Positions 5,338 through 62,671 of a stretch of DNA of 64,000 nt are shown here, in pieces; the first letter of the stretch is position 1, and each line of letters starts with the position of its first letter. The notes beneath the pieces are model-generated. The model saw only the letters and a list, made by a program, of their open reading frames with translations. It was not told the origin of the DNA and did no database searches. The translations under genes and the position numbers were made by a program. The stretch comes from an uncultured Candidatus Saccharibacteria bacterium (GTDB lineage Bacteria; Patescibacteriota; Minisyncoccia; 2-02-FULL-40-12; GWA2-44-9): the NCBI GenBank assembly GCA_964513645.1, contig CAZENF010000002.1, positions 8,090 to 72,089 of the forward strand, in the 5' to 3' direction.

Positions 5338-6122
5338 GATAATAGCTGGCCGGCGGTGGCCATTAGGACCTTAACAAATTCCTCTTTGTTCACGCTCGCC
5401 GAACCGACAAGGACACCATTGATGTCTTTGTGTTTAAGAAATTCGGCGGCGTTCTTTGAATTGACGGAACCACCGTATAAAAATAAATTTCCAATTTCCA
5501 ATTTCCAATTTCCAATTAAGGTATCTCGGATTATTTTTATCGATTCGAGCGCGGAGTCAGGGGTATCAGGTTTGGCGCCGAGATTTGATGAGATTGCCCA
5601 AACCGGTTCATAAGCAACAAGACATTTACCTACCTCGTCGGATGTCAGGTCTTTAAAAGTATTCTTAACTTGCTCCTCGAGGAATTTTTTAAAACCTTCA
5701 TTCCTCTCTCTTTCACCGATACAGACAACCGGTGTCAGACCGTTACGCAGAGACGCCTTTAATTTTTTATTGACCAGTTCGTCCGATTCGCCAAGTTTCC
5801 AGCGTCTTTCAGAATGCCCGATGATAACGTACTCCACACCGAGACGAGTAAGCATCGGGCCAGAAACTTCGCCGGTCAGAGCACCCTTATCTTCGGTCGA
5901 GATGTCTTGGGCGCCCAAAGCGGCCTCGTGTTCAAGGTGAGACATATTCAGTTCTTTTGAAACTTCTTCCAGAAAAACAAAAGGCGGACAAAAAACCAGT
6001 CCGAACTTTTCTTTTTCGTTCAGCGAACCGAGATAATCATCGACGTATTCTAAAATATCCCTGGCTTCGGCCAGAGTTTGGGGAGACATTTTCCAATTGG
6101 CGATGATTGTTTTCTTGTCCAT
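5334..6122 (-). CDS. tpiA: Triosephosphate isomerase
   Basis: Motifs IANWKM, GHSERR and YGGSV are present. It overlaps pgk by 4 nt. Confidence 0.9.
   Translation of the reverse strand: MDKKTIIANWKMSPQTLAEARDILEYVDDYLGSLNEKEKFGLVFCPPFVFLEEVSKELNMSHLEHEAALGAQDISTEDKGALTGEVSGPMLTRLGVEYVIIGHSERRWKLGESDELVNKKLKASLRNGLTPVVCIGERERNEGFKKFLEEQVKNTFKDLTSDEVGKCLVAYEPVWAISSNLGAKPDTPDSALESIKIIRDTLIGNWKLEIGNLFLYGGSVNSKNAAEFLKHKDINGVLVGSASVNKEEFVKVLMATAGQLLS
5489..5516. repeat. (TTTCCAA)x4 heptamer tandem repeat inside the tpiA coding sequence
   Basis: Direct reading of the sequence; it encodes IGNWKLEIGNL. Confidence 0.7.
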
Positions 6123-7114
6123 TATATTTTGGCGTTCTTTAACATATTCGCGGCCTCGTCGGGATCAACGACATTTATCTCAACGCCGGTGCCGATCTCA
6201 AAACCGGCATCGATCTTCATGTGCGGGATGACTTCGACATGCCAGCGGTAGAATTCGTGCATTTCAGTATTGAAGTTGCTTGCCAAAGGCGCAGTATGAA
6301 TGAAAAAGTTAAAAGCCGGTTTGCCTAGCGCAACCTTGAGTCTCTGGATGCTTTGATGGAGCGCGTCAGCAAAAAGCGCGTCTTTGTGATCCGGCATTTG
6401 TTCGAAGTGGGCGTGATTCTCTTTGGGGAATATTCTTTGTTCATAGGGGTATTTTGAAACATAAGGGCAGAAGACCACGAACTCATCGTTCTCGTAGACG
6501 ACTCTGGTTTTCTGGGCAAGTTCCCAGTTGACCACTTCATCGTAAACTCTTTTTTTATTTTTTTTATAGTATTCGTGTGAACCGTTGATACTGTGATTAA
6601 CGTCGGGCGGGAGTATCGGCATCGTGATTATTTGGGAATGAGGATGAAAAATACTCGCTCCGGCTTCGGCACCGTGATTGTGGAAAATCAAAATATAACG
6701 GGTACACTCTATCTTCTTGGCAAGTTCGAGATAGCGACGTTTATAGACCTTAACCGCACCAGTTATATCTTCGACGCTAAAGTCATCGAACCTCCGCTCA
6801 TGATCACGGTACACCACCACTTCGTGGTCACCGACAGCTAAATGAGATTTGAAGGGGCCGACTTCAGTATCCTGACCGCAGACGCCGGCTTTTAAAGCCG
6901 GGTATTTGTTTTTTATAACCGCAATCTTCCAGTTCTTGTCATCCGGATATGTCCAGACGAGTTCCTGGCCGGTTTCGACGAGTTCCTCAAAAGGACATCC
7001 TTCCGGAGATTGATAAACATCCTGAACACTGCGCGAATCGGAACGTTTCGAACGGCCGGTCGCAAAAAGCACCCATTCGCCTGATACTAAATCTTGTCTG
7101 AATTCGTTTAACAA
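6122..7114 (-). CDS. galT: Galactose-1-phosphate uridylyltransferase family (HIT superfamily, GalT-like)
   Basis: FHNHGAEAGASIFHPHSQI compares with E. coli FENKGAAMGCSNPHPHGQI. An N-terminal ...GEWVLFATGRSKR and a CPF motif also match. Confidence 0.65.
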   Translation of the reverse strand: MLNEFRQDLVSGEWVLFATGRSKRSDSRSVQDVYQSPEGCPFEELVETGQELVWTYPDDKNWKIAVIKNKYPALKAGVCGQDTEVGPFKSHLAVGDHEVVVYRDHERRFDDFSVEDITGAVKVYKRRYLELAKKIECTRYILIFHNHGAEAGASIFHPHSQIITMPILPPDVNHSINGSHEYYKKNKKRVYDEVVNWELAQKTRVVYENDEFVVFCPYVSKYPYEQRIFPKENHAHFEQMPDHKDALFADALHQSIQRLKVALGKPAFNFFIHTAPLASNFNTEMHEFYRWHVEVIPHMKIDAGFEIGTGVEINVVDPDEAANMLKNAKI

Positions 7115-7220: not shown

Positions 7221-7940
7221 TTAACTATACTTCCCCGTCATCAAACCCCACCTTATCTTAATTGTATCAAATAAAACTTCTTTGTAAGCTTCGAGGCCAA
7301 CATGAGAATTAGGATTGTTATGCCAATCCACCGGAAGTTCTTTTATTTTGAATTTGTACTTCAGGGCTATAGCCAGCATCTCAACATCAAAACCCCAGCG
7401 TTCTATCGTCAATTTCGGAAAGATCGTTTCGGCGGCTTTGGCGGTTACGAGCTTAAAACCTCTCTGGGTATCGTAAATTCCGGGTACGGCCATTATCTGA
7501 ATGAACAGATTTCCTAATTTACCGAAGATCCTCCGCCACAATGGCTCGCTGCCAGAAGAAATCTTATGTCCGCTGATGGCTATAGAACCAATGACGACCT
7601 GGTACCCTTGGTTAGTGTAAGGAAAAAACTTGTCGAGATGATCAATAGAGGTTGAGTTATCGGCATCAGTAAATACCCGGAAATCGCCTTTCGCCTCGAG
7701 CATTCCCTGTTTAACCGCATAGCCCTTGCCGTGGTTCTCCTGGTTCACAACAGCGCGGAGACCTTTTATCTCTGGCTCAAGTGATTTGACCACTTCTCCG
7801 GTCCGGTCTTTTATTCCGTCAATGATAACCAAAATCTCGTAATCATAACTCTGCCTTTTTAAATAGGCATCAATAGACTTGAGAGTCGAGGTTATAACAT
7901 TCTCTTCTTTGTAAGCCGGGATGATGACGCTTAGATACAT
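7221..7940 (-). CDS. Family 2 glycosyltransferase (DPM1-like)
   Basis: N-terminal VIIPAYKEE, a DAD motif, and GT2 architecture. Confidence 0.75.
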   Translation of the reverse strand: MYLSVIIPAYKEENVITSTLKSIDAYLKRQSYDYEILVIIDGIKDRTGEVVKSLEPEIKGLRAVVNQENHGKGYAVKQGMLEAKGDFRVFTDADNSTSIDHLDKFFPYTNQGYQVVIGSIAISGHKISSGSEPLWRRIFGKLGNLFIQIMAVPGIYDTQRGFKLVTAKAAETIFPKLTIERWGFDVEMLAIALKYKFKIKELPVDWHNNPNSHVGLEAYKEVLFDTIKIRWGLMTGKYS

Positions 7941-15236: not shown

Positions 15237-16001
15237 TTAGCCTGTTAATTTAATTACCTCTTCCGCTAATCGCCGATATTCATCGGCGGCTTTTGAATTG
15301 GGACTGAACTGGATTATCGGCTTACCGTAACTTGGAGCTTCAGCCAGATCGATCGTTCTTGAGATAGATGTTTCGAACACTCTTCCAGTAAAATTCTTAT
15401 GGACCTCGTTCATTACATGGCGGTTCAATTGATTCCTCTTATCATACATTGTAAGCAATACCCCAAGTACTTGCAAATCCGGGTTGAGGCCCTGCTTTAC
15501 CAGATCAATAGCATAAACCAGTTGGCTAAGACCTTCTAAAGCATAGTACTCACACTGGACCGGTATCAGAACATGATCCGCAGCAGTTAAAGCATTTATC
15601 GTCAAAAGTCCGAGCGAGGGCGGACAGTCAATCAGAATATAGTCGTAATTCATCCTTAAAGAACCCAGGGCCTTCTTGAGGCGGTATTCCCTCTCCCCCA
15701 TCGATACAAGCTCAACCGTCGCTCCGGCAAGCGCTTGGGTCGCCGGAAGAACATCAAAACCGAAGATGGAGGTTTTCTTTATCATTGTCAGGGGGTTCTG
15801 GTCGTTAACGATCGCATGATAGACATTATCGCTCTCTAACGCTAAATTAATGCCCAAACCGCCGGTAGCGTTGGCCTGGGAGTCCATATCTACCAAAAGG
15901 ACGTATTTGCCCAAGGCAGCCAAATAAGCTCCGAGGTTAATGGCCGTGGTGGTTTTACCGACTCCGCCCTTGGCATTACAGATTGTGAGTATTCTTGCCA
16001 T
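15237..16001 (-). CDS. parA: Chromosome partitioning ATPase ParA/Soj
   Basis: The deviant Walker A KGGVGKTT is present. Confidence 0.9.
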   Translation of the reverse strand: MARILTICNAKGGVGKTTTAINLGAYLAALGKYVLLVDMDSQANATGGLGINLALESDNVYHAIVNDQNPLTMIKKTSIFGFDVLPATQALAGATVELVSMGEREYRLKKALGSLRMNYDYILIDCPPSLGLLTINALTAADHVLIPVQCEYYALEGLSQLVYAIDLVKQGLNPDLQVLGVLLTMYDKRNQLNRHVMNEVHKNFTGRVFETSISRTIDLAEAPSYGKPIIQFSPNSKAADEYRRLAEEVIKLTG

Positions 16002-16199
16002 TTATAACTTGCTGGCCGCTCCGCTAATCGCCTGGGGCGATTAAAGCGGTAAGCTCTTGGCCAATATCCAGCCCGAATCGCAACGATTCGTTGCGGGCGG
16101 GTTTCGTTAGAAGCTCCGTTCCTCCTTCACCATAGTTATACTATGGCTCAGTCCGGTACTCGCTTCTGCCTCAATCTTGGCCAAGCCAGCTGCGTTCTA
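16002..16199. repeat. MITE-like repeat element, copy A (198 bp) with imperfect terminal inverted repeats
   Basis: The left end ttataacttgctggccgct abuts the parA ATG. The right end tgcctcaatcttggccaagccagctgcgttctaa is 39/40 identical to the end of copy B at 24818-24973. Internal perfect hairpins include cgcaacg-att-cgttgcg and ccatagt-tata-actatgg. Confidence 0.55.
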
Positions 16200-17387: not shown

Positions 17388-18200
17388 TCACAAGTTTAAT
17401 TTTACCAGATTCATCAAAACAGTAGCAATTACTACCGGACCCATTCCGCCCGGAACTGGAGTGAAGAGCGAGGCTACGCTCGAAACTGAATCTCCGTCCA
17501 TATCCCCGACCATCTTGCCATCTTTTTTCTCATAACCAAAATCAAAGGCGACAACTCCCTTTTTTAACATATCGCCGGTTATAATGCCAGGTTTACCGAC
17601 GCCCGAAACCACAATGTCCGCTCTTTTGACTCCTTCTTCAAAATCTTTAGTCTTGCTTCTTATCCGGATAACTCTGGCTCCGGCTGCTTCAAGCCAATGA
17701 GCTATCGGTTTGCCGATAAGCATGCCTTGCCCAAACACGGCAACGGTCCTGTCTTTAACATTGATACCATTCCTCTCGATGATTATCCTGACCGCCTCTA
17801 CCGCTGGTGGAAATATTTTTGATGCATTTTCATAGAACAGTTCCTGACTTTCGTCCGACAAAACATCCACATCCTTGGAAACCGGTACCGAACTTAGTAC
17901 TTCGGAAGCATTAATATGTTCGGGTAATGGCAATTCGATTAAAACCCCGTCGGCCCTGGCTGAAATAGCCGCCGATTCCTCCTTTAGTTTTTGAGTAGTT
18001 ATATCTTCAGGAAATTCGCACATCTTAAAACTTACTCCGATCTTTTCCGCCGCCTTGCCTTTTAACTCAACAAATTTTTTAAATTCAGGGCTTGTCCCGA
18101 CTAAAACAGCTGCCAATTGCAGCTTTAGATCCTTGTCTTCAACTTCTTTTTTGAGCTGATTTAAAAGCTCTTCGGCGATAAGCCGACCCTGAATTATCAT
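17388..18200 (-). CDS. folD: Bifunctional methylene-THF dehydrogenase/cyclohydrolase
   Basis: FolD-like sequence at ~270 aa. It overlaps glyA by 4 nt. Confidence 0.88.
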   Translation of the reverse strand: MIIQGRLIAEELLNQLKKEVEDKDLKLQLAAVLVGTSPEFKKFVELKGKAAEKIGVSFKMCEFPEDITTQKLKEESAAISARADGVLIELPLPEHINASEVLSSVPVSKDVDVLSDESQELFYENASKIFPPAVEAVRIIIERNGINVKDRTVAVFGQGMLIGKPIAHWLEAAGARVIRIRSKTKDFEEGVKRADIVVSGVGKPGIITGDMLKKGVVAFDFGYEKKDGKMVGDMDGDSVSSVASLFTPVPGGMGPVVIATVLMNLVKLNL

Positions 18201-19351
18201 TTTCTTGAAAATATCTCTTTTATCCTGCGAGCTATTTTTACCATATCTTCCTCTTTCATGCCACGGGTCGTTACCGCCGGCGTACCAAGACGAATACCTG
18301 ACGGGTCCCAGGGACGGCGGGTGTCGAAAGGTATCATATTCTTATTGACGATTATCCCATCTTTTTCAAGTTTATCCGAAGCCTGCTGCCCGGTCAGGCC
18401 AAAAGGCGTAGTATCGATAAGAACCATGTGATTATCGGTGCCGCCTGAAATTACTTGAAAACCCTGGTTCTTCAGTTCCTCGGAGAGAGCTTTAGCGTTT
18501 TTAACAATCTGTTGGGCATATTCCTTAAATTCTGGCTTAAGCGATTCTTCTAACGCCACGCCGGTTGCGGCAATGGCATTCATATGAGGACCGCCCTGAA
18601 TGCCCGGGAAAACGGTTTTATCGACATTGTCGGCAAGGTTTCTTTTAGATATTATTATCGCGCTTCGAGGACCACGCAGGGTCTTGTGGGTCGTTGTGGT
18701 CACAATATCGGCATAAGGAAAAGGAGAAGGGTGAGCACCGCCGATAACCAAGCCTGCAATGTGGGCGATATCAGCCATTAAAAGCGCTCCGACAGAATCA
18801 GCTATTTCTTTAAATCTTTTGAAATCCAAAGTTCTCGAATAAGCGGAGGTTCCGGTAATTATTAGTTTCGGCCTGAAGCGTTTAGCGATCTCGGCAACGG
18901 TATCATAATTTATGAATCCGTCCTCACCGACGCCATAGTGTTCAAACTGGAATATCTTGCCGGTGATGCTGGCTGTATGACCATGGGTCAAATGACCGCC
19001 ATGTTCAAGAGACATCGAAAGTACCTCATCATTAATATTAAGCACCCCGAAATAGGCAGCGATATTGGCAATACTGCCCGAATAAGGCTGAACATTGACC
19101 GCGTATTCATCGGCATGAATATTAAAAGCTTTATACACCAGGTCCACAACCGTATCTTCGAGTTCATCTATGAATTGGTTACCTGCATAATAGCGTCGGT
19201 GAGGAGAACCCTCGGCGTATTTATTCGTAAAGACCGAGCCCAGCGCCCGCAGAACGTCATCCGAGACAAAATTCTCCGATGGTATCAGATTAATGACTTC
19301 CTTCTGGCGTTTTTCTTCTTTTTCGAGTATATCGAATATCTTGGATGACAT
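18197..19351 (-). CDS. glyA: Serine hydroxymethyltransferase
   Basis: Motifs LIPSENF, TNKYAEG and HGGHLTHGH are present. Confidence 0.92.
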   Translation of the reverse strand: MSSKIFDILEKEEKRQKEVINLIPSENFVSDDVLRALGSVFTNKYAEGSPHRRYYAGNQFIDELEDTVVDLVYKAFNIHADEYAVNVQPYSGSIANIAAYFGVLNINDEVLSMSLEHGGHLTHGHTASITGKIFQFEHYGVGEDGFINYDTVAEIAKRFRPKLIITGTSAYSRTLDFKRFKEIADSVGALLMADIAHIAGLVIGGAHPSPFPYADIVTTTTHKTLRGPRSAIIISKRNLADNVDKTVFPGIQGGPHMNAIAATGVALEESLKPEFKEYAQQIVKNAKALSEELKNQGFQVISGGTDNHMVLIDTTPFGLTGQQASDKLEKDGIIVNKNMIPFDTRRPWDPSGIRLGTPAVTTRGMKEEDMVKIARRIKEIFSRK

Positions 19352-19410
19352 CAGGTAGTGAATCTCCGATTTAAATTAGCCGCCAGGCAGTCGGAGATTC
19401 TACTACCTGA
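19352..19410. repeat. Palindromic hairpin repeat with CAGGTAGTGAAT-type arms (copy 1), abutting the glyA start codon
   Basis: tcaggtagtgaatctccga...tcggagattctactacctga forms an 18-19 bp stem with a 22-nt loop. The same arm 12-mers recur at 25437-25513. Confidence 0.6.
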
Positions 19411-19687
19411 CATTGGCTTTATAGTATCAAAAAGGATAATAGCAGTAAAACTTCCTCTCCGATTTCTCACCCCTTCGCCTCATCAACAAATCCTAAACTA
19501 TTTATTATGTTGTTATGCTCATACAGGAGCCATAACAACCATTTTTCCTACAAAAATTCAGTACCCCTCTAAAACATCGGACCGAATTTTTGTGAATAGT
19601 AAAAATTTCATAAATAGCTTATATTTGTCGTGACTCGGCTCAAAGGATTCGAGAATCGGCACAGAAGTTTTACCAATTATAGTTAGT

Positions 19688-19738
19688 AAAAAAAATCCCT
19701 TCCTTTGTCCTGAATATATCGAGGGACTCCAGAAGGGT
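19688..19738 (-). terminator. Rho-independent terminator for the 19756..20121 gene
   Basis: On the minus strand, cccttctggagtccctcgatatattcaggacaaaggaaggg is followed by tttttttt. Confidence 0.6.
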
Positions 19739-19755
19739 ATCCGTCATTTAGGCGA

Positions 19756-20121
19756 TTATTTTAGGTTGGCCTTGAGAAGCTTCAAAATTTCCTTTTCAAC
19801 GGCTTCTTTTTTTTGTTCATTAGATCTTTCATCTATTTCAGAAAGATATAAAGCGAATTTCAACTCATATATTTCCCGATGCCATTTCTTATCAAGATTA
19901 GGACATGTAAAACTATCATGTAAAACTTCGACTTTAGCAAGTGACTCGATAAAGCTCCGAGGACCAAGAATATTTCGTTCAACGACCATCCGGGTATTAC
20001 AAATACCGCATTTCATAGAATCTTTAACCCCGGGGTTAGGATAGGCACGACCAAAGTTACCATACCAACTTATTTTAAAACGATTTTGGGAAATCCTCGT
20101 TGGCACTAATGGATGCGGCAA
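19756..20121 (-). CDS. Hypothetical Cys-containing protein, start uncertain
   Basis: A 121-aa ORF from TTG. The frame stays open for a further 43 codons upstream and includes an AAGGAGG motif at about 20246-20252, but no ATG/GTG/TTG occurs there. Confidence 0.4.
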   Translation of the reverse strand: MPHPLVPTRISQNRFKISWYGNFGRAYPNPGVKDSMKCGICNTRMVVERNILGPRSFIESLAKVEVLHDSFTCPNLDKKWHREIYELKFALYLSEIDERSNEQKKEAVEKEILKLLKANLK

Positions 20122-20294: not shown

Positions 20295-20515
20295 GCAAGA
20301 TAGTTAATAATTTCGCAGACCATCTTTTTTCGAGGTTAAGCAAAAATCAAATTAACCGATAATTTATGTTTTATTCCACAAATTTGAGGGGAGTTCCTCC
20401 GCCTATTAGGCGGATAACAGGACGACGAGGCTCAAATTTGTTAACTAAATTTAGGTTAATTTGATTTTTGTACGAAGATAAAAAGTAGGTCGAGAAAATT
20501 ATTAACTATCTTGCT
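20295..20515. repeat. Long imperfect palindrome of 221 bp with nested perfect inverted repeats
   Basis: Outer IR: gcaagatagttaataattt (20295-20313) against 20497-20515. Middle IR: caaaaatcaaattaacc against ggttaatttgatttttg. Central hairpin: tccgcc-tatta-ggcgga near 20406. The right arm overlaps the tsaC stop codon. Confidence 0.6.
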
Positions 20516-23481: not shown

Positions 23482-24186
23482 TCACCAACCTTTTTTAGCA
23501 AGCGCATCTTGGGCGGCTTCCTGCTGGGCTTCCTGCTTGGAAAGACCCTGGCCCTCACCGGCTTTTTCCTTTTCAAGAAAAACTCCTATCTTGAAGTTCC
23601 GGGCATGGTCAGGGCCCCACTCTTCGAGAACTTCATAGGTCGGAGTGACGCCGACTTTTTCCTGAGCCTGCTCCTGGAACAAACTTTTAGCATCGCGGTA
23701 TAAACGTTTCTCGATTATCGAAGGAAGTTCCTTTAAAACAAACCTGGAAATAAATTTTTCAGAAGGTTCGTAACCTTGGTCAAGATAGATTGCGCCGATT
23801 AGCGCCTCAATCGCGTTGGCCAAGATATATTGCCTGGCCCGGCCGGTGTCTTTGGCCTCACCGCGCGAAAGCAGAACAAAATCATTCAGATCAAATTCGT
23901 TCGATATCTTGGAAAGTATATTTGCGTTGACCAAGGCCGCCCGCCAGTTGGTCATTTCCCCTTCCGGATTCGGATACTTGTTATAAAGATATTCGGTAAC
24001 AACCAACTCCAGAACCGCATCGCCCAAAAACTCAAGACGTTCATTGTGATCCAGACGCCATTTTGGATTCTCGTTGAGATATGAACGGTGGGTTAAGGCC
24101 TGCAGAAGCAGGTCCTTATCCTTAAATTCGAAGCCGATCTTGGCTTCAAGCTGAGATGTTTTATCTTCTGACATATCTATAACCAA
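23482..24186 (-). CDS. rnc: Ribonuclease III
   Basis: The signature ERLEFLGDAVLEL and a C-terminal dsRBD. Confidence 0.9.
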   Translation of the reverse strand: MVIDMSEDKTSQLEAKIGFEFKDKDLLLQALTHRSYLNENPKWRLDHNERLEFLGDAVLELVVTEYLYNKYPNPEGEMTNWRAALVNANILSKISNEFDLNDFVLLSRGEAKDTGRARQYILANAIEALIGAIYLDQGYEPSEKFISRFVLKELPSIIEKRLYRDAKSLFQEQAQEKVGVTPTYEVLEEWGPDHARNFKIGVFLEKEKAGEGQGLSKQEAQQEAAQDALAKKGW

Positions 24187-24316: not shown

Positions 24317-24817
24317 TCATTCCTTATTACTAACCCCTTCTTTCTCTCCTGCTAGTTCGCCTGAATCTTTTGCGGGAGGAGCATCATCTTTACCCGGTTC
24401 CCCTATTTCACGATAAACAGTACCTAAAACACCGTTAACAAATTTACCCGAAGACTCACCGCCGAACGATTTAGCAAGTTCTATTGCTTCATTGATCGCA
24501 ACCTTAGGCGGGACTTCTTCCCTTTTGCCGAAAAGAAGTTCATACAGACCGAGACGAAGAACATTTCTGTCGACAACCGCAACTTGATTCAAAGGCCATT
24601 GAGGGGCGGCCTTTTCAATTATCTTATCGATAGCGCCGACGTGACTGATCGTCCCTTCGATCAGCTGATTAATGAATGAGGTATCTTCCATTCCGGAAGC
24701 GAATTCTTTGATATTCCTTTCAGTGATACCGGGAAGTTCTTCCATTTTTCTGCCCCGAAAATCCCACTCATAGAGGGTTTGCATCGCAACACTTCTTGAT
24801 AAATGCCTACTAGCCAT
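24317..24817 (-). CDS. nusB: Transcription antitermination factor NusB with a C-terminal extension
   Basis: A NusB-like N-terminus ([14 protein letters not shown]) and the [10 protein letters not shown] motif. Confidence 0.85.
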
Positions 24818-24973
24818 TTATAACTTGCTGGCCGCTCTCGTTTTAAGATTTTGCAAGGACGCTCTTGACCAATATTTTCGTTAAAAGTTCCGCTTGCTCG
24901 TCATCATATTGCAATATGTTTCCTCGCAATGCTCACCTTTGCCTCAATCTTGGTCAAGCCAGCTGCGTTCTAA
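24818..24973. repeat. MITE-like repeat element, copy B (156 bp)
   Basis: It shares the 19-nt left end (abutting the nusB ATG) and the 40-nt right end with copy A. The middle has diverged and carries a degenerate cttgaccaatatt motif. Confidence 0.55.
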
Positions 24974-25218: not shown

Positions 25219-25436
25219 AATTGTTGAATTTTTTGGAGCTCTTTGTAGTGAACAAAAATTCACTACAATTATGAGCATCCCGCCTCATCTGGCCGTTAGA
25301 CTAGTGTTAAGTACCAAAAAAGACGAAGTCGAATTTGCAATTGTAAACTTTATCTAAAAATAAGCACCACCCCAGATGGAGCGGGGAGCCCACATTTAGT
25401 AATTATATCCTAACATAAATATTTAATCTTTGCAAA

Positions 25437-25513
25437 CCAGGTAGTAGATATTTGAGTTGGCTTTGCCTTAGTAATTTTCTTTAGAAAATTACATCTCAAA
25501 TATTCACTACCTG
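25437..25513. repeat. Palindromic hairpin repeat with CAGGTAGTGAAT-type arms (copy 2)
   Basis: ccaggtagtagatatttgag...ctcaaatattcactacctgg forms a 20-bp stem with an inner taattttc-ttta-gaaaatta hairpin. Confidence 0.6.
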
Positions 25514-25541
25514 GCAAATAAAAAGCTTCCCTAAAGGAAGC

Positions 25542-30019: not shown

Positions 30020-31774
30020 ATGGTAAAAGACCTTGAGAAAATACGACACTCCCTTGCCCACCTTCTGGGTGCGGCTGTTTTGGAATTATACCCAGGCTCA
30101 AAACTCGCTATCGGCCCGGCCATCGATGACGGATTTTACTACGACATTGATATCAAAGGCAAAATTTCGGATGATGACCTGTCAAAGATAGAAGACAAGA
30201 TGAAAGATATCCTCAAGACCTGGGACAAATTCGAAGGCAAAGAAACTTCTGCCAAAGAAGCTCTGAAATTATTTAAAGATAATCCATTCAAAGAAGAACT
30301 GATAAAAGACCTTGACGAGAAGAAAGAAAAAATAACCCTATATACCTCGGGTGAATTTACCGACCTTTGCCGAGGCGGCCACGTTGAAAATGCCAAAGAC
30401 ATTAAGCCCGACTCTTTCAAATTATCCCATGTTGCCGGTGCTTACTGGCGTGGCAGCGAAAAGAATCCGCAGCTTACCAGAATATATGGTCTCGCCTTTG
30501 AAACCAAAACAGATCTCGAAAAACATCTGGTTATGCTCGAAGAAGCAAAAAAGCGCGACCACCGCAAACTCGGAAAAGAACTTAAGCTTTTTACTTTTAG
30601 TGATTATGTCGGGCCCGGTCTGCCTATTTGGCTGCCGAATGGCACTATCTTAATAGAGGAACTTGAAAAACTCGCCAAAGAAACCGAACTTAAAGCCGGT
30701 TACAAGCAAGTCCGCACCCCTCATATCGCAAAAGAGGAAATGTATAAAACATCAGGTCACCTGCCGTATTATGCCGAGAGCATGTTCCCGCCGATGGTAA
30801 TGAAGGAAGAGAATAGTGAAGAGGTCTACTACCTTAAAGCAATGAACTGTCCTCACCACCACCAGATATATGCGGCTGAAACAAGAAGTTACCGTGATCT
30901 GCCCTTGCGTCTGGCTGAATATGGCACCGTCTACCGCTATGAAAAAAGTGGCGAACTTTTCGGATTAATGAGGGTTCGAATGCTTTCAATGAATGATGCC
31001 CATATCTATACCATCGAAGAGCAGTTTGCTGACGAGTTCAGGGCGGTGAATGATATGTACCTACATTATTTTAAATTGTTCGGCATTGATAAATATGTAA
31101 TGAGGTTTTCAACTCACGATTCGAAAGAACTCGGCAAAAAATATATCGACAATCCTAAACTCTGGAAGAAAACCGAGGATATGGTCAGGACCGTATTAAA
31201 AGAGAGTGGAATAAATTATATTGAAGTACCGAACGAAGCAGCCTTTTATGGTCCCAAAATAGACGTCCAAATCTGGAGCTCAATTGGCCGAGAATTCACT
31301 ATTGCCACCAATCAGGTTGATTTTGCACAACCTGAAAGATTCGGCCTGACTTACGTTGACACTGATGGAAAAAATAAAACCCCGATCGTAATTCACCGAG
31401 CACCCTTAGGAACACACGAAAGATTTATCGGTTTTCTTATCGAGCATTACGCCGGCGCTTTTCCGGTCTGGCTCTCTCCTGTTCAGGCCATTGTTCTGCC
31501 GATATCCGAAAAACAATCTGAATATGCCGAAAAGGTTCTTAAAGAACTAAAGGAAAACGGTATCCGATCCGAAATCGATCTTTCCAATGAAACTCTCGGC
31601 AAAAAAATAAGGAATTCTGAAACGAGAAAAATCCCCTACCTGTTGGTGGTTGGAGACAAAGAGGTTCAGGCTGAAAAAGTTGCCGTCAGACAAAGAGGTA
31701 AGGGTGATGCAGGACAATTAAAACTTGGTGACTTCGTCAAAAAAATAAAAGAAGAGATCTCTCAAAAAACATAA
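30020..31774 (+). CDS. thrS: Threonyl-tRNA synthetase, short form lacking the N-terminal TGS domain
   Basis: A class II core (HRKLGKEL, MNCPHHHQIY) and an anticodon-binding domain. Confidence 0.92.
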   Translation: MVKDLEKIRHSLAHLLGAAVLELYPGSKLAIGPAIDDGFYYDIDIKGKISDDDLSKIEDKMKDILKTWDKFEGKETSAKEALKLFKDNPFKEELIKDLDEKKEKITLYTSGEFTDLCRGGHVENAKDIKPDSFKLSHVAGAYWRGSEKNPQLTRIYGLAFETKTDLEKHLVMLEEAKKRDHRKLGKELKLFTFSDYVGPGLPIWLPNGTILIEELEKLAKETELKAGYKQVRTPHIAKEEMYKTSGHLPYYAESMFPPMVMKEENSEEVYYLKAMNCPHHHQIYAAETRSYRDLPLRLAEYGTVYRYEKSGELFGLMRVRMLSMNDAHIYTIEEQFADEFRAVNDMYLHYFKLFGIDKYVMRFSTHDSKELGKKYIDNPKLWKKTEDMVRTVLKESGINYIEVPNEAAFYGPKIDVQIWSSIGREFTIATNQVDFAQPERFGLTYVDTDGKNKTPIVIHRAPLGTHERFIGFLIEHYAGAFPVWLSPVQAIVLPISEKQSEYAEKVLKELKENGIRSEIDLSNETLGKKIRNSETRKIPYLLVVGDKEVQAEKVAVRQRGKGDAGQLKLGDFVKKIKEEISQKT

Positions 31775-33031: not shown

Positions 33032-33928
33032 ATGGATAAAAAAACCACCGGGCAAAAGATTATCGTTATTGTCGGCCCAACTGCATCCGGAAAATCAGAC
33101 TTAGCCATTAAATTAGCCAAAAAACTCGGAGGTGAGATAATTTCGGCTGACAGCCGGCAAGTTTACCGTGGAATGGATATTGGGACTGGTAAAGTAACCA
33201 AAAAAGAACAAAAAATCGTGAAACATCACCTTATTGATATAATTTCCCCAAAAAACCAGTTCACGGTTTCAGAGTTTAAAAGATTGTCTGAAAAAGTGTT
33301 GGAAAAACTTTACACTCAAGGTAAGGTTCCCATAATTGTGGGCGGGACTGGGCTGTATATCGATGTTCTGACCGGCAGAATGGCTATCGCGGAAGTCCCG
33401 CCCAATAAAAAACTACGCGCGGAACTTGAGAAACAAACAGCAGAACAACTTTTCAAACATTTAGAAAAAATTGATCCGGCAAGAGCTGTCGATATCGACC
33501 GCCACAACAAGAGACGCCTGATAAGAGCTCTCGAAATAGTCGTCTCAACAAAAAAAACAATTCCCAAGAACACACCGATAAATAATTACCAGATACTATG
33601 GTTAGGGTTGAGACCTGCTAATTTGGAAAAAAGAATCAAAGATCGTTTAAACGAACGTCTCGAACACGGAATGGTATCAGAGACAAAAAAACTCCGCCAG
33701 AACGGTGTCACCTGGAAAAGACTCGACGACTTCGGCCTTGAATATAGATGGGCAGCAAGATCTTTAAAAAAAGAACTGGCCGAAAAAGAATTTCAGGAAA
33801 ACCTTTATAAGGATATTGTTCGATATTCAAAACGCCAGATGACCTGGTTCAAAAAAAACAAAGAGATACACTGGATAAAAAACTTAAAAGAGGCGGAGAG
33901 ACTGGTCTCTAACTTTCTTCGGGCTTAG
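33032..33928 (+). CDS. miaA: tRNA dimethylallyltransferase
   Basis: P-loop GPTASGKS and the SADSRQVYRGMDIGTGK motif. Confidence 0.9.
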   Translation: MDKKTTGQKIIVIVGPTASGKSDLAIKLAKKLGGEIISADSRQVYRGMDIGTGKVTKKEQKIVKHHLIDIISPKNQFTVSEFKRLSEKVLEKLYTQGKVPIIVGGTGLYIDVLTGRMAIAEVPPNKKLRAELEKQTAEQLFKHLEKIDPARAVDIDRHNKRRLIRALEIVVSTKKTIPKNTPINNYQILWLGLRPANLEKRIKDRLNERLEHGMVSETKKLRQNGVTWKRLDDFGLEYRWAARSLKKELAEKEFQENLYKDIVRYSKRQMTWFKKNKEIHWIKNLKEAERLVSNFLRA

Positions 33929-58047: not shown

Positions 58048-59484
58048 TTATTTTACCGGGGCACATTTCTTATTATATTTAACATCGATCTGAGAACAAA
58101 TATATTTTTGTTTCTCTGCTGGGTAAATGTTGCTTTCCTGCCAGATCAAATTATTATAACAAGCGATTTTTTGTTCTTCGGTAAGAAGAGGGTTAGCGCA
58201 AAACGCTAAGGGCTTGGTATATTCCAGATCAGGCGTACCAACCTCGATCAAACCCTCAATGTATCCTTCAATACACGGGGTGACCAGTCTTTTCTGAAGA
58301 GATTGGCAAACTTTTACCTGTTTTGAATAATCAGCCAGGTCCCACCCCGATTGTCCGTTAACATCCGACAAACTTCTCATGGTAGAAATGGCGTATTCAT
58401 CCTCTTTTATTGCTTCGACAAATTTAATAGCTTTTAAGAAATCGGAGTTGCTTATCGCCATTAGGTACGTGTTCATCTCCTCATAGCAAGTCAGTTTGGC
58501 ATAATCTTTTTCTAAGCTCCGACAATAAAAAAGAGGGTCGGACTCGTTCTTGCGCAACTTTCCTTGATTATATGCAATTGCCATTGCATTGAACACTCCG
58601 CTTCCGCAGCGGTTAAGCATCTGGGGGTTAGGCGCAACCTTTTCGCACAAGGCCAGAGCAGGCATCACGACCGATCTTTCATTCGGCCAATCATTGTCAT
58701 CATCAACCGCGCCATGACCGATACCATGATAACATTTCCCCAAAGTATCAGCACTTACATTTTTCATCTTATCGTAGGCATAATTACAAAAATCCCTTGC
58801 CACACTCAAGTCATTAGTTTCATGAAGAAGAGTTTGCATAAAGCCGTGATAAAATCCGAAACTGCAATAAGAAACTTTTTCCGGTAAGGTAAAGTTTTTG
58901 TGTTCAGAAAATAAATAATACGCTTTTTCTCCCAACTTATGGACCAAGCCGTGGCAGTAGTATTTAAAATCCGGGTCATTGTTATATGAGTCCGAGATCA
59001 TATTAAATGTTCCTTCCAATCCTTTGCTCTCAATAATAGAATCGATGTTGGTGTCCCAGCATTGAGCCCTATTTTCCTCCGAAACATGTACGCAATCAAC
59101 ATAAGGAATCTTACCGTCAGAGCCACGAACTTTGACTATCCCCTGGTAGTAAGGATCGAGGTGGTCATGGAATTTCCAATTACCGGCTTTATCGAACTTA
59201 AAGCTCCAAGATTTATCAGAGTCTATCGGACGTTTGGGATCAAATTCCGGGTACAAGGTGTGGGTCGGATGGATATCCGAAGCCGGCCAGAATGGTTTCG
59301 TAAGTCGGGTAGTGAAAACTACCATGTCGCCCTGGTTAATAGTTATGTTTGAGGGTGAAAAGCCGTCTTTGGTTAGAGAAATGTAGTAAGTGGCTGGCGA
59401 CTGATGGATAAAAAATTTAAACAGGTAAAAAGCCCCTAAAACAGCACAAAAAAGAATGAGAAGTAAGATCAGACGGTATTTCAT
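58048..59484 (-). CDS. Secreted protein with a cupredoxin-like N-domain plus a Cys/His-rich domain, paralogue family member 3
   Basis: Colinear with the 499-aa paralogue: ITINQGDMVVFTT...WPASDIHPTHTLYPEF, CHGLVHKLG and CYHGIGHG. Confidence 0.5.
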   Translation of the reverse strand: MKYRLILLLILFCAVLGAFYLFKFFIHQSPATYYISLTKDGFSPSNITINQGDMVVFTTRLTKPFWPASDIHPTHTLYPEFDPKRPIDSDKSWSFKFDKAGNWKFHDHLDPYYQGIVKVRGSDGKIPYVDCVHVSEENRAQCWDTNIDSIIESKGLEGTFNMISDSYNNDPDFKYYCHGLVHKLGEKAYYLFSEHKNFTLPEKVSYCSFGFYHGFMQTLLHETNDLSVARDFCNYAYDKMKNVSADTLGKCYHGIGHGAVDDDNDWPNERSVVMPALALCEKVAPNPQMLNRCGSGVFNAMAIAYNQGKLRKNESDPLFYCRSLEKDYAKLTCYEEMNTYLMAISNSDFLKAIKFVEAIKEDEYAISTMRSLSDVNGQSGWDLADYSKQVKVCQSLQKRLVTPCIEGYIEGLIEVGTPDLEYTKPLAFCANPLLTEEQKIACYNNLIWQESNIYPAEKQKYICSQIDVKYNKKCAPVK

Positions 59485-60723: not shown

Positions 60724-61206
60724 TTATTTGGAACTTCGTGGTTTAGGGATCGATTTTGGCGTTCCGTTGAAGAAAACAGGGGCTGTATAACGGATCTCGG
60801 CCGCGGTGAATTTTTTAGTTCCCGTTATATTATCCGTAGCAATTATAACAACATTTGAATTGTTCGGATTATAGAGATCGGCAAGACTACCTTCTAAAGA
60901 ACCGGATTTCAAATTAGTCGGCGTATATTTACCATCTGGAGGAGGTATCAAGGTTATTTTTACAAATTTGGTATTGGAATTTGTTATAACCGATACCACT
61001 TCAGTTGGACCATAGGATTTGCCGTCAATCATGACCGTACCAGCAACAGATAGTTGAGTTTCGGTTATTCCGGCTATTTTACCCCTAAATTCAGAACTTT
61101 TTATATTGTCATTTTTAGACGGGAGACCTTTTGCAAAAAGTAAAACGACTGCGATCAGAAAGATCATTATCGCTATACTTGTCCCTTTCCGGCGTCGGGT
61201 ATGCAT
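60724..61206 (-). CDS. Hypothetical secreted protein
   Basis: An N-terminal transmembrane anchor followed by an S/T/N-rich domain. Confidence 0.4.
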   Translation of the reverse strand: MHTRRRKGTSIAIMIFLIAVVLLFAKGLPSKNDNIKSSEFRGKIAGITETQLSVAGTVMIDGKSYGPTEVVSVITNSNTKFVKITLIPPPDGKYTPTNLKSGSLEGSLADLYNPNNSNVVIIATDNITGTKKFTAAEIRYTAPVFFNGTPKSIPKPRSSK

Positions 61207-61221
61207 AATTTAAGTATAAAT

Positions 61222-62655
61222 TTAGTTCCGAATATTATCAATAACGGAACTGATATGAGCTTTGAGGTCCTGAATCTTGATCCTGTCCTGCTTGGCAGTA
61301 TCCCTGTCACGAATCGTAACAGTATCTTTCAGCTCGGGTTTTTCTCCCAAAGTATCAAAATCGATGGTGATAGACAAAGGTGTACCTATCTCGTCTTGCG
61401 AGTAATAACGTTTACCGATGTTTCCCCGGTCGTCCCAGACAACGTTGAAGTGTTTCTTGAGGTCTTTATAGATCTCTCTGGCTTTTTCGACGAGTTCAGG
61501 CTTATTTTTAAGCAGAGGAAAAACCGCCGCTTTGTACGGCGCAAGCTTCGGGCTAAGTTTTAAAACGACCCTGTCCCCGTCCTCGTGATAAGCGTCGCAT
61601 AGAACAGCCAAAGCAATGCGGTCAACTCCGGCTGAAGGTTCTATTACATAGGGAACAAAAACTTCCCCGGAGTCAGGATCCCTGAACGACATATCCTGGC
61701 CTGAACTTTTCTGATGAGACTGGAGGTCAAAATCTCCCCGGTTGGCGATGCCTTCTATTTCTTTGGTGCCGAACGGGAAATCATATTCAATGTCGATGGT
61801 TTCTTTTGAATAATGGGCTCTTTCTTCTTTGGTCTGTTCTCTTTTGTGAACGTTTTTTAAGCCTATTTTCTTGTACCATTCAAAACGTGAAGCAACCCAT
61901 TCTTTAAAATATTTCTCATCTTCACCTGGTTTAACAAAATATTCTAACTCCATCTGTTCGAATTCCCTTGTCCGGAAAATATAATCTTTAGGGTTTATTT
62001 CATTACGAAAAGCTTTGCCTATCTGGGCAATACCGAACGGAACCCTAACTCTTGTTGAGTCGACGACATTATTGAAGTTAACAAAAATACCTCCGGCAGT
62101 TTCCGGACGAAGATAAGCAACCGAGGCGGTGTCTTCGGCCGGTCCGACAAATGTTTTGAACATTAAATTAAATGATTTGGCTTCAGTAAATTCTTTTCCT
62201 CCACAAACTTCGCATCCATTTTCCTTCAATTCCAAGGTTCTTTTTTTAAGAATTCTCTTACCCTCCTCTGCTACCTGCTCTCCAATGCTTTTTTCTATAT
62301 TTCTTTTGGGTCGGAATTGGTCTTCGGGTTTATATATATCTTCGGGCCTATATCTTTTATGACATTTCTTGCACTCAATTAATGGGTCTGAAAATCCTCC
62401 GACATGGCCGGAAGCAACCCAGGCTTGAGGATTCATTATCAAAGCGGCCGATAAGCCGACGACATCATCTCTTTCCCGAACAACCGACTTCCACCACTCC
62501 TGTTTAAGATTAAATTTGAGTTCTGCTCCAAGCGGCCCGAAATCATAAAAACCTCCGATGCCACCGTATATCTCGGAACCCGGAAATATAAAACCGCGCC
62601 GTTTGCATAAGGCAACTACTTTATCCAACAAATTTTGCTCTTTATTTTTTTCCAT
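61222..62655 (-). CDS. glyQS: Glycyl-tRNA synthetase (alpha2 single-chain type)
   Basis: A class II core with FPGSEIYGGIGGFYDFGPLG and an anticodon-binding domain. Confidence 0.92.
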   Translation of the reverse strand: MEKNKEQNLLDKVVALCKRRGFIFPGSEIYGGIGGFYDFGPLGAELKFNLKQEWWKSVVRERDDVVGLSAALIMNPQAWVASGHVGGFSDPLIECKKCHKRYRPEDIYKPEDQFRPKRNIEKSIGEQVAEEGKRILKKRTLELKENGCEVCGGKEFTEAKSFNLMFKTFVGPAEDTASVAYLRPETAGGIFVNFNNVVDSTRVRVPFGIAQIGKAFRNEINPKDYIFRTREFEQMELEYFVKPGEDEKYFKEWVASRFEWYKKIGLKNVHKREQTKEERAHYSKETIDIEYDFPFGTKEIEGIANRGDFDLQSHQKSSGQDMSFRDPDSGEVFVPYVIEPSAGVDRIALAVLCDAYHEDGDRVVLKLSPKLAPYKAAVFPLLKNKPELVEKAREIYKDLKKHFNVVWDDRGNIGKRYYSQDEIGTPLSITIDFDTLGEKPELKDTVTIRDRDTAKQDRIKIQDLKAHISSVIDNIRN

Positions 62656-62671
62656 ACTACCTGATACTATT

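Follow-up and report, generated by a model that had tools for sequence, protein, structure and literature searches.

Very small mobile hairpin elements of Patescibacteria and a longer form with the same ends that carries a GIY-YIG nuclease gene

Several kinds of small palindromic or hairpin-forming repeats are known in Bacteria. Miniature inverted-repeat transposable elements (MITEs), such as the Correia elements (CREE) of Neisseria, are short non-coding units with terminal inverted repeats and a target-site duplication, present in many dispersed copies often next to genes and folding as hairpins when transcribed; Correia hairpins in mRNAs are cut by RNase III and can supply promoters. REP/REPIN elements with their RAYT genes, and palindrome-associated elements of the IS200/IS605 type, are small hairpin-forming repeats with a GTAG-containing conserved end and an obligatory imperfection in the stem, which persist across whole lineages together with a small nuclease-type gene; they are moved by Y1 (HUH) enzymes and make no target-site duplication. 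Rickettsia palindromic elements are small palindromic selfish elements tolerated in or at coding sequences because the reading frame survives; they insert in frame inside genes and have no known encoded enzyme. Free-standing or intron-encoded GIY-YIG homing endonuclease genes (phage T4 Seg proteins, I-TevI) are selfish elements that carry a GIY-YIG catalytic domain and insert without destroying host coding sequence; they have extra DNA-binding domains, home to one cognate allele by repair, and are not known to have inverted ends or duplications. Finally, small single-domain GIY-YIG proteins of the UPF0213/YhbQ type are ordinary chromosomal genes of unknown role, not described as bounded by inverted repeats.

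The two hairpins considered here lie in a 64,000-nucleotide stretch of DNA (hereafter the window; contig CAZENF010000002.1 of assembly GCA_964513645.1, from an uncultured Candidatus Saccharibacteria bacterium), which is low in GC (about 43%) and gene-dense. They belong to a family of 56-76-nt elements found almost only in Patescibacteria (CPR bacteria), with several copies per genome and a full-length form of about 320 bp that has the same ends around one tiny GIY-YIG nuclease ORF. Compared with Correia elements, the short copies are much smaller (56-76 nt against roughly 100-155 nt), have a 4-bp YATR duplication rather than TA, are strongly linked to start codons, and share their ends with a partner encoding a GIY-YIG nuclease and not a DDE transposase. 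In contrast with REP/REPIN and IS200/IS605 elements, a variable 4-bp duplication is present and the linked ORF is GIY-YIG. Unlike the Rickettsia elements, the family sits at gene boundaries and has an ORF-bearing form. As opposed to homing endonucleases, the protein is the bare 84-88-aa domain, the targets are many unrelated sites, the copies have inverted repeats and duplications, and deletion derivatives have multiplied. The features of the window are the following:

19352..19409, minus strand: element 1, a 58-nt non-autonomous (MITE-like) copy reading CAGGTAGTAGAATCTCCGA-CTGCCTGGCGGCTAATTTAAA-TCGGAGATTCACTACCTG in sense orientation; it is the AG-left isoform, with its GC-rich interior hairpin first, co-directional with glyA.
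19410..19413, minus strand: upstream copy of the flanking direct repeat (ATGT), whose ATG (19413-19411) is the predicted original, promoter-proximal start codon; orthologues have a single ...caaATGTC... at this site.
19348..19351, minus strand: downstream copy of the direct repeat ATGT, containing the present glyA start codon (19351-19349).
19351..19413, minus strand: a 20-codon uORF (MSGSRISDCLAANLNRRFTT*) running from the upstream ATG copy through the whole hairpin, with a stop UGA overlapping the glyA AUG (UGAUG).
18197..19351, minus strand: glyA (serine hydroxymethyltransferase, 384 aa), an intact ORF followed by folD.
19418..19426, minus strand: a -10-like box (TACTAT / TATAAA) 4-7 nt upstream of the upstream ATG copy, without a Shine-Dalgarno sequence; this leaderless-type start context is inferred only.
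25437..25514, plus strand: element 2, a 78-nt non-autonomous copy including the outer C...G pair, C-CAGGTAGTAGATATTTGAG...CTCAAATATTCACTACCTG-G, whose interior forms two small hairpins.
25433..25436, plus strand: left copy of the 4-bp target-site duplication CAAA of element 2.
25515..25518, plus strand: right copy of this duplication, forming on the minus strand part of the T-tract of the terminator-like hairpin at 25543-25523.

The observation that first drew attention to these loci, made by a sequence-only reading, is confirmed: both are strong hairpins with shared termini. On the plus strand element 1 reads CAGGTAGTGAATCTCCGA...TCGGAGATTCTACTACCTG, and on the minus (glyA mRNA) strand it is followed directly by the glyA ATG. 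As RNA it folds at -35 kcal/mol (z = -5.0, with 0 of 200 shuffles as good), and the minimum-free-energy stem runs on through AUGU/AUGU, so the start codon lies inside it, as had been claimed. Element 2 folds at -37.5 kcal/mol (z = -6.0) and is also listed among the inverted repeats of the window. The terminal motif CAGGTAGT occurs six times in the window against 0.7 expected, and four of these are the four arm ends. Some details of the sequence-only reading are corrected: element 1 had been extended to 19410, but this base belongs to the flanking repeat; arms of unequal length are not a family trait, the single-base bulge of element 1 being its own indel; and the short direct repeats flanking both elements (on the plus strand, ACAT for element 1 and CAAA for element 2) had gone unnoticed. 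Its interpretation, which left a choice between small palindromic mobile elements, protein-binding palindromes and translational control hairpins, is partly supported: the two hairpins do form a repeat family and the mobile-element option holds, whereas an operator or a hairpin evolved as a glyA-specific translational control device is not supported.

The absence of further copies genome-wide had been set beforehand as a refuting condition, and it fails decisively. A scan of one genome per species with CAGGTAGTAGA-N25-55-TCACTACCTG returned at least 119 stretches, against an estimate of about 8 by chance. About 100 of these have a long stem, and nearly all of those carrying a lineage name are from Yanofsky-, Portnoy-, Harrison-, Giovannoni-, Gottesman-, Pacei- and Saccharibacteria MAGs, with several copies per genome and up to 10 or more per MAG. 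Most hits outside CPR-labelled bins lack a stem: those in Paenarthrobacter, Bryobacteraceae and alphaproteobacteria have none and match the chance expectation, while one Verrucomicrobiae MAG gives palindromic arrays of an 11-mer, which is a different feature. The family consensus is C-CAGGTAGT-AG-AAnTTCGAc ... gTCGAAnTT-TC-ACTACCTG-G (with GA in place of AG, and CT in place of TC, in the other isoform), with 19-21-nt arms and an interior of two small hairpins. The arms are of equal length and differ by an AG/GA swap, giving a G.T wobble plus an A.C mismatch, and this asymmetry is never lost in 129 non-redundant arm pairs. The rest of the arms covary, with 98.9% of cells paired, 12 of 18 pairs showing changes on both sides, and 279 cells with such changes against 50 in shuffles—although the scan required exact termini and right arms were chosen by complementarity, both of which inflate apparent conservation and pairing.

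The copies behave as insertions. In 101 copies, flank positions -5 to -2 on the left equal +1 to +4 on the right in 75-85% of cases against 39-42% expected, while positions -6, -1 and +5 show no excess; position -1 is C and +0 is G, so that the unit is C-CAGG...CCTG-G with a 4-bp duplication and a YATR preference. Element 2 fits exactly (CAAA/CAAA), whereas element 1 deviates from the consensus, its ATGT/ATGT abutting CAGG/CCTG in a register shifted by one base, its outer pair being T...A, and one arm having a 1-nt indel. Orthologous sites are empty: an exact-protein lookup of the glyA product found no record, but a homology search placed it closest to Yanofskybacteria proteins, and four orthologues at 80-85% identity (loci L120, L122, L123 and L124) read ...tataaattcaaATGTCc... 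with no element. Copies are also nested in one another. In a Portnoybacteria MAG they sit in the AAAA/TTTT of another copy's arm, again with 4-bp duplications, and one nested copy (in loci L078/L126) is absent from 12 otherwise homologous full-length copies.

The full-length form was recognised in L078 (190-575) and in a further locus, L061 (642-947), where the same ends enclose an 86-88-aa ORF. This ORF matches the GIY-YIG domain (Pfam PF01541, E = 6.5e-13 and 1.7e-17), and its closest solved relatives by sequence are UPF0213 proteins (PDB 1zg2 and 1ywl, E = 3.8e-5 and 1.5e-3), of similar size and single-domain. A metagenome scan with the two proteins found 502 relatives among 600 stretches. 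Among the best 80 loci, which are the closest relatives of one query, 67 of 81 hits have complementary flanking arms and 14 lack the repeats, giving 61 unique copies of 304-363 nt (median 319) with an ORF of 84-88 aa; nearly all carry the family ends. The duplication is TATG/TATG in 35 copies, and a host ORF begins at the ATG of the right-hand duplication in 37, the typical arrangement being TATG-[element]-TATG. The outer bases of the two ends change together (CCAGGTAG/CTACCTGG, CCGGGTAG/CTACCCGG, CCAGGCAG/CTGCCTGG, CCAAGCAG/CTGCTTGG, CCCGGTAG/CTACCGGG). The protein is well conserved across 48 unique sequences, including the catalytic Tyr, Tyr, Arg, Glu and Asn (YxY, LYIGYT, R, EHN and RREKYLK positions), and forms at least 892 clusters at 90% identity, none of which is named as anything more than a nuclease or endonuclease. 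A search for pairs of family ends 420-6000 nt apart in 0.97 Mb of element-rich sequence found no larger unit, every pair joining ends of separate, already-identified copies; sizes fall into two main classes, up to 90 nt and 251-420 nt, with 13 intermediate copies. Viral contigs gave neither a DNA match nor a protein relative, so there is no sign of a phage vehicle. By tblastn the 64-kb window encodes no GIY-YIG homologue, and elements 1 and 2 thus depend on a source elsewhere or may be immobile relics.

Of 102 short copies, 29 have an ATG within 0-3 nt of an end that opens an ORF of at least 60 codons, against a control of 1.3% per side. In the orientation where the duplication reads TATG, 27 of 29 short copies have the GC-rich interior hairpin first, which is the orientation of the ORF in the full-length form; insertion, or survival after insertion, is therefore orientation-specific. 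Upstream of the left ATG copy, a TANNNT box with a 5-9-nt spacer is present in 33 of 95 unique flanks (35%), against 9.9% of all YATG sites and 21% of approximate gene starts, while SD-like motifs occur in 2% of these flanks against 7-11%. Many genes of the window itself show the same -10-then-ATG arrangement. From this it is inferred that the preferred targets are start codons of leaderless-type genes, although the inference rests on -10-like boxes alone, and a two-hexamer promoter scan calls no minus-strand promoter upstream of element 1. In the full-length form, the flank ATG is in frame with the nuclease ORF in 28 of 38 copies, 27 of them without a stop, usually 30 nt upstream, so that the left repeat is read as MPGSENST... 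Five further copies lack an own-ATG ORF of at least 70 codons: in four loci (L130, L172, L186, L188) there is no internal ATG at all and the ORF must start at the flank ATG, and in L195 the first internal ATG lies inside the conserved GIY motif. Database gene calls are often 98-102 aa rather than 88, consistent with that start. A sister subfamily (CCGGG ends, duplication TGGA) sits at the last codons of long dockerin-like ORFs, where the repeat re-creates ...W-T-G-stop. Both arrangements preserve the host protein while placing the element's ORF in a translated position.

These results support, with good confidence, the view that both hairpins are non-autonomous, MITE-like copies of a transposable-element family. 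The analysis itself establishes the terminal inverted repeats, the 4-bp duplication with its YATR preference (most often TATG), the full-length form with a single GIY-YIG ORF, the short forms as internal-deletion derivatives whose abutting ends explain why they fold as hairpins, and the two insertions in the window, that of element 1 at the glyA start codon, where duplication of ATGT regenerated an intact ATG, and that of element 2 at CAAA in the T-tract of a terminator. What is inferred is how the family works: it would target YATG at the starts of genes with a -10 box 6-8 nt upstream and no Shine-Dalgarno sequence, the host promoter and the upstream duplicated ATG would drive expression of the element's own ORF, and the host gene would be translated from the regenerated ATG at the right end. 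The most speculative step is that the GIY-YIG protein itself makes the staggered cuts, or alternatively that another enzyme does so; it is the only ORF of the partner that shares the ends, and its transposase activity is inferred only. The data require staggered 4-bp handling of a YATR target, recognition of both ends, and an obligatory difference between the two ends. One model that fits the fixed orientation relative to the non-palindromic TATG is that the nuclease makes 4-nt cohesive cuts at element junctions and at targets, resealed by host ligase or repair, which predicts precise excision; equally possible is a structure-specific mode, in which the enzyme would cut at the base of a hairpin or cruciform extending through the self-complementary YATR. 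However, GIY-YIG enzymes are hydrolytic nucleases with no known strand-transfer activity, an 88-aa protein has no obvious DNA-binding domain, and transposition and cleavage are on present evidence inferred from sequence alone.

Among the alternatives, the main one, although unlikely, is that the hairpins are MITEs moved by an unidentified conventional (DDE-type) transposase, with the GIY-YIG gene as a passenger, for example a homing endonuclease gene invading the loop of the hairpin element and spreading among copies. Inverted terminal repeats with a short target-site duplication are the usual signature of DDE transposition, GIY-YIG enzymes are known as homing nucleases and not as transposases, and short copies show a wider target spectrum than ORF-bearing ones; yet no larger unit with these ends was found in the 0.97 Mb examined, the ORF fills the whole interior, is usually in frame with the flank ATG through the left repeat and sometimes has no start codon of its own, and the outer bases of the ends vary together with the ORF-bearing copies. 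Movement as single-stranded hairpins by a Y1 (HUH) transposase or RAYT is very unlikely. The GTAG near the 5' end, the strictly conserved internal mismatch (129 of 129 copies) and a Y1_Tnp fragment near glyA in a relative (L120) would speak for it, but the 4-bp flanking duplications vary from copy to copy, which Y1 transposition is not known to produce, the Y1 fragment occurs only in L120/L121, has no such repeats around it and is absent from the window and from all element loci, and the enclosed ORF is GIY-YIG in 61 unique copies. Elements derived from IS200/IS605 have different subterminal hairpins at the two ends and a fixed target tetranucleotide on one side only, whereas here the two ends are inverted copies of each other and the matched flanks vary.

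A dedicated cis-regulatory RNA of glyA, evolved in place to sequester the start codon and with element 2 as a second such regulator, is likewise very unlikely. The stem is very stable and is predicted to include the AUG, and glyA and folD often carry leaders, but this reading is contradicted by the four empty orthologous sites, and against it also speak the presence of the same element next to unrelated genes in many Patescibacteria lineages, the duplications and nested copies, and element 2, which is not upstream of a start codon and abuts a terminator. Neither is there an Rfam match: with Rfam 15 only two tRNAs reach gathering score in the window, and a permissive scan of 19250-19800, around element 1, gave nothing meaningful at E up to 10. 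Least likely are operators for a dimeric DNA-binding protein controlling a regulon; the termini are conserved and near-palindromic, and many copies lie at promoters or start codons, but the neighbouring genes have no common function, the conserved parts lie 20-280 nt apart, and duplications, nested insertions and ORF-bearing forms argue against it. Integron attC-like or ribozyme-like readings, considered from the three-way shape and the conserved mismatch, were dropped because the cores (RYYYAAC...GTTRRRY in attC) do not match the termini CCAGGTAG/CTACCTGG, the interior varies or is replaced by an ORF, and the copies are solitary and lie next to housekeeping genes. An internal promoter in the short form (TTCGAC-N18-TAAAAT) was set aside because interiors are too variable.

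Literature searches on the sequence itself, on GIY-YIG proteins in connection with transposons, MITEs, CPR bacteria or inverted repeats, and on UPF0213/YhbQ found no description of this element, nor was any annotation describing it found. As hairpin repeats these are a new family of MITEs, a class already described, whereas the ORF-bearing partner is unlike any described prokaryotic transposon. It is possible, though held only tentatively and as somewhat less likely than not, that the roughly 320-bp unit is an autonomous transposon whose only protein is its mobilising enzyme. This would make it a new class of prokaryotic transposable element and the smallest autonomous one known, using a nuclease fold not previously linked to elements with inverted ends and target-site duplications, borrowing the promoter and start codon of a leaderless host gene for its own ORF and handing a regenerated start codon back, with the sister subfamily doing the equivalent at stop codons. 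The whole system is small enough to synthesise, and a minimal nuclease that recognises defined ends could be of practical use. Patescibacteria genomes would contain a previously unrecognised, abundant mobile-element family hidden by current annotation, its ORFs being labelled "GIY-YIG nuclease", "putative endonuclease" or even, for one cluster, "excinuclease ABC subunit C". Recognising it corrects gene starts, because many calls are 10 residues too long or include the element, and explains recurrent 60-70-nt hairpins at gene starts. The precise placement at start and stop codons also bears on how these reduced bacteria initiate translation, and the element could serve as a natural reporter of leaderless initiation in an uncultured phylum.

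Within the window, element 1 is a deletion derivative of the minority (AG-left) isoform. Among 23 comparable short copies, 20 have a uORF that stops inside the element, abuts the host ATG or fuses in frame with it; translation as an in-frame N-terminal extension concerns only 3 of 23 and is not the rule. In the working model, transcription of glyA would start at or near the upstream AUG, placing the hairpin at the extreme 5' end of the transcript, and a ribosome starting there would read the 20-codon uORF through the stem, melting it, and stop at UGAUG, which would allow re-initiation on glyA; the transcription start is unproven, in line with the negative promoter scan. Sequestration of the start codon is thus real as a predicted structure, but it is the by-product of an insertion, as would be any effect on glyA translation. 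RNase III, whose gene rnc lies in the window at 23482-24186, could also process such a stem, as it does for Correia elements. Element 2 lies in the T-tract directly after the terminator-like hairpin of the upstream minus-strand gene and is probably neutral.

A subfamily with CCGGG ends and the duplication TGGA is found at the very 3' end of long ORFs that end ...DLIDFSI(M/L)AYYWTG* (dockerin-like repeats), in loci L141, L151, L155, L160, L165, L166, L173, L174, L187, L190, L198, L202 and L205 (L numbers designate the individual loci compared), where the left repeat of the element (ACC GGG TAG) re-creates the last two codons and the stop. In some of these loci the GIY-YIG gene downstream has lost its repeats, and may therefore be immobilised. 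More distant small GIY-YIG genes (L040 7156-7395, L044 356-598 and L115 4-225) are flanked by unrelated inverted repeats, CCTGTTAGAGATA...TATCTCTAACAGG and ACCCCCTCACTC...GAGTGAGGGGGT, which suggests that the architecture combining inverted repeats with a GIY-YIG gene is broader than the one family studied here. Finally, at locus L029 (950-1030), a related element with different outer ends (CCCCGTAGTAGGATTTCGAC...TCGAAATTTCACTACGGGG) is inserted in the loop hairpin of a standard copy, and only the GTAGT(AG/GA)...ACTAC core is shared.

In one Verrucomicrobiae MAG (L017, L031, L034, L057, L066, L073, L074, L080, L084, L087, L103, L108 and L111), long palindromes built from tandem 11-mers (GGTCACTACCT / AGGTAGTGACC) occur at many loci of this single genome; they were picked up by the search pattern by chance and represent a different repeat system. 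In the closest named relative (Yanofskybacteria, loci L120/L121), a 157-aa N-terminally truncated Y1_Tnp (IS200-like) ORF (188-661) lies next to the syntenic NTP-transferase gene, but it is not linked to the hairpin family. In the same relative, a reverse transcriptase (RVT_1) and a bAvd-like gene sit between glyA and folD (5403-6771), an arrangement that looks like a diversity-generating retroelement, while in the window glyA and folD overlap instead.

Within the window itself, an exact 25-nt repeat, GAGCGGCCAGCAAGTTATAAATGGC, is present on the minus strand at 15997-16021 and 24813-24837, and spans the start codons of two unrelated genes, i.e., the ORF at 15237-16001 and the ORF at 24317-24817, which we took to be nusB. 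No such repeat is expected by chance (expected number 0), and it may be either another small repeat or a shared start-region signal. A solitary CAGGTAGT (62656-62663, minus strand) lies directly before the ATG of the ORF at 61222-62655 and is preceded by TAGTAT, and may be either due to chance or a remnant of an element end. Two nested imperfect inverted repeats (24 nt at 88% and 19 nt at 84%) are located at 20341-20470, in the intergenic region between the Sua5/YrdC-family (Pfam PF01300) gene and a 121-aa ORF, and are unrelated in sequence to the family studied here. More generally, many genes in the window (e.g., the ORFs at 7221-7940, 30020-31774, 33032-33928, 58048-59484 and 60724-61206) have a TATAAT-like box 6-9 nt before the ATG and no Shine-Dalgarno sequence, while a minority have clear AGGAGG sites, suggesting widespread leaderless-type starts in this genome.
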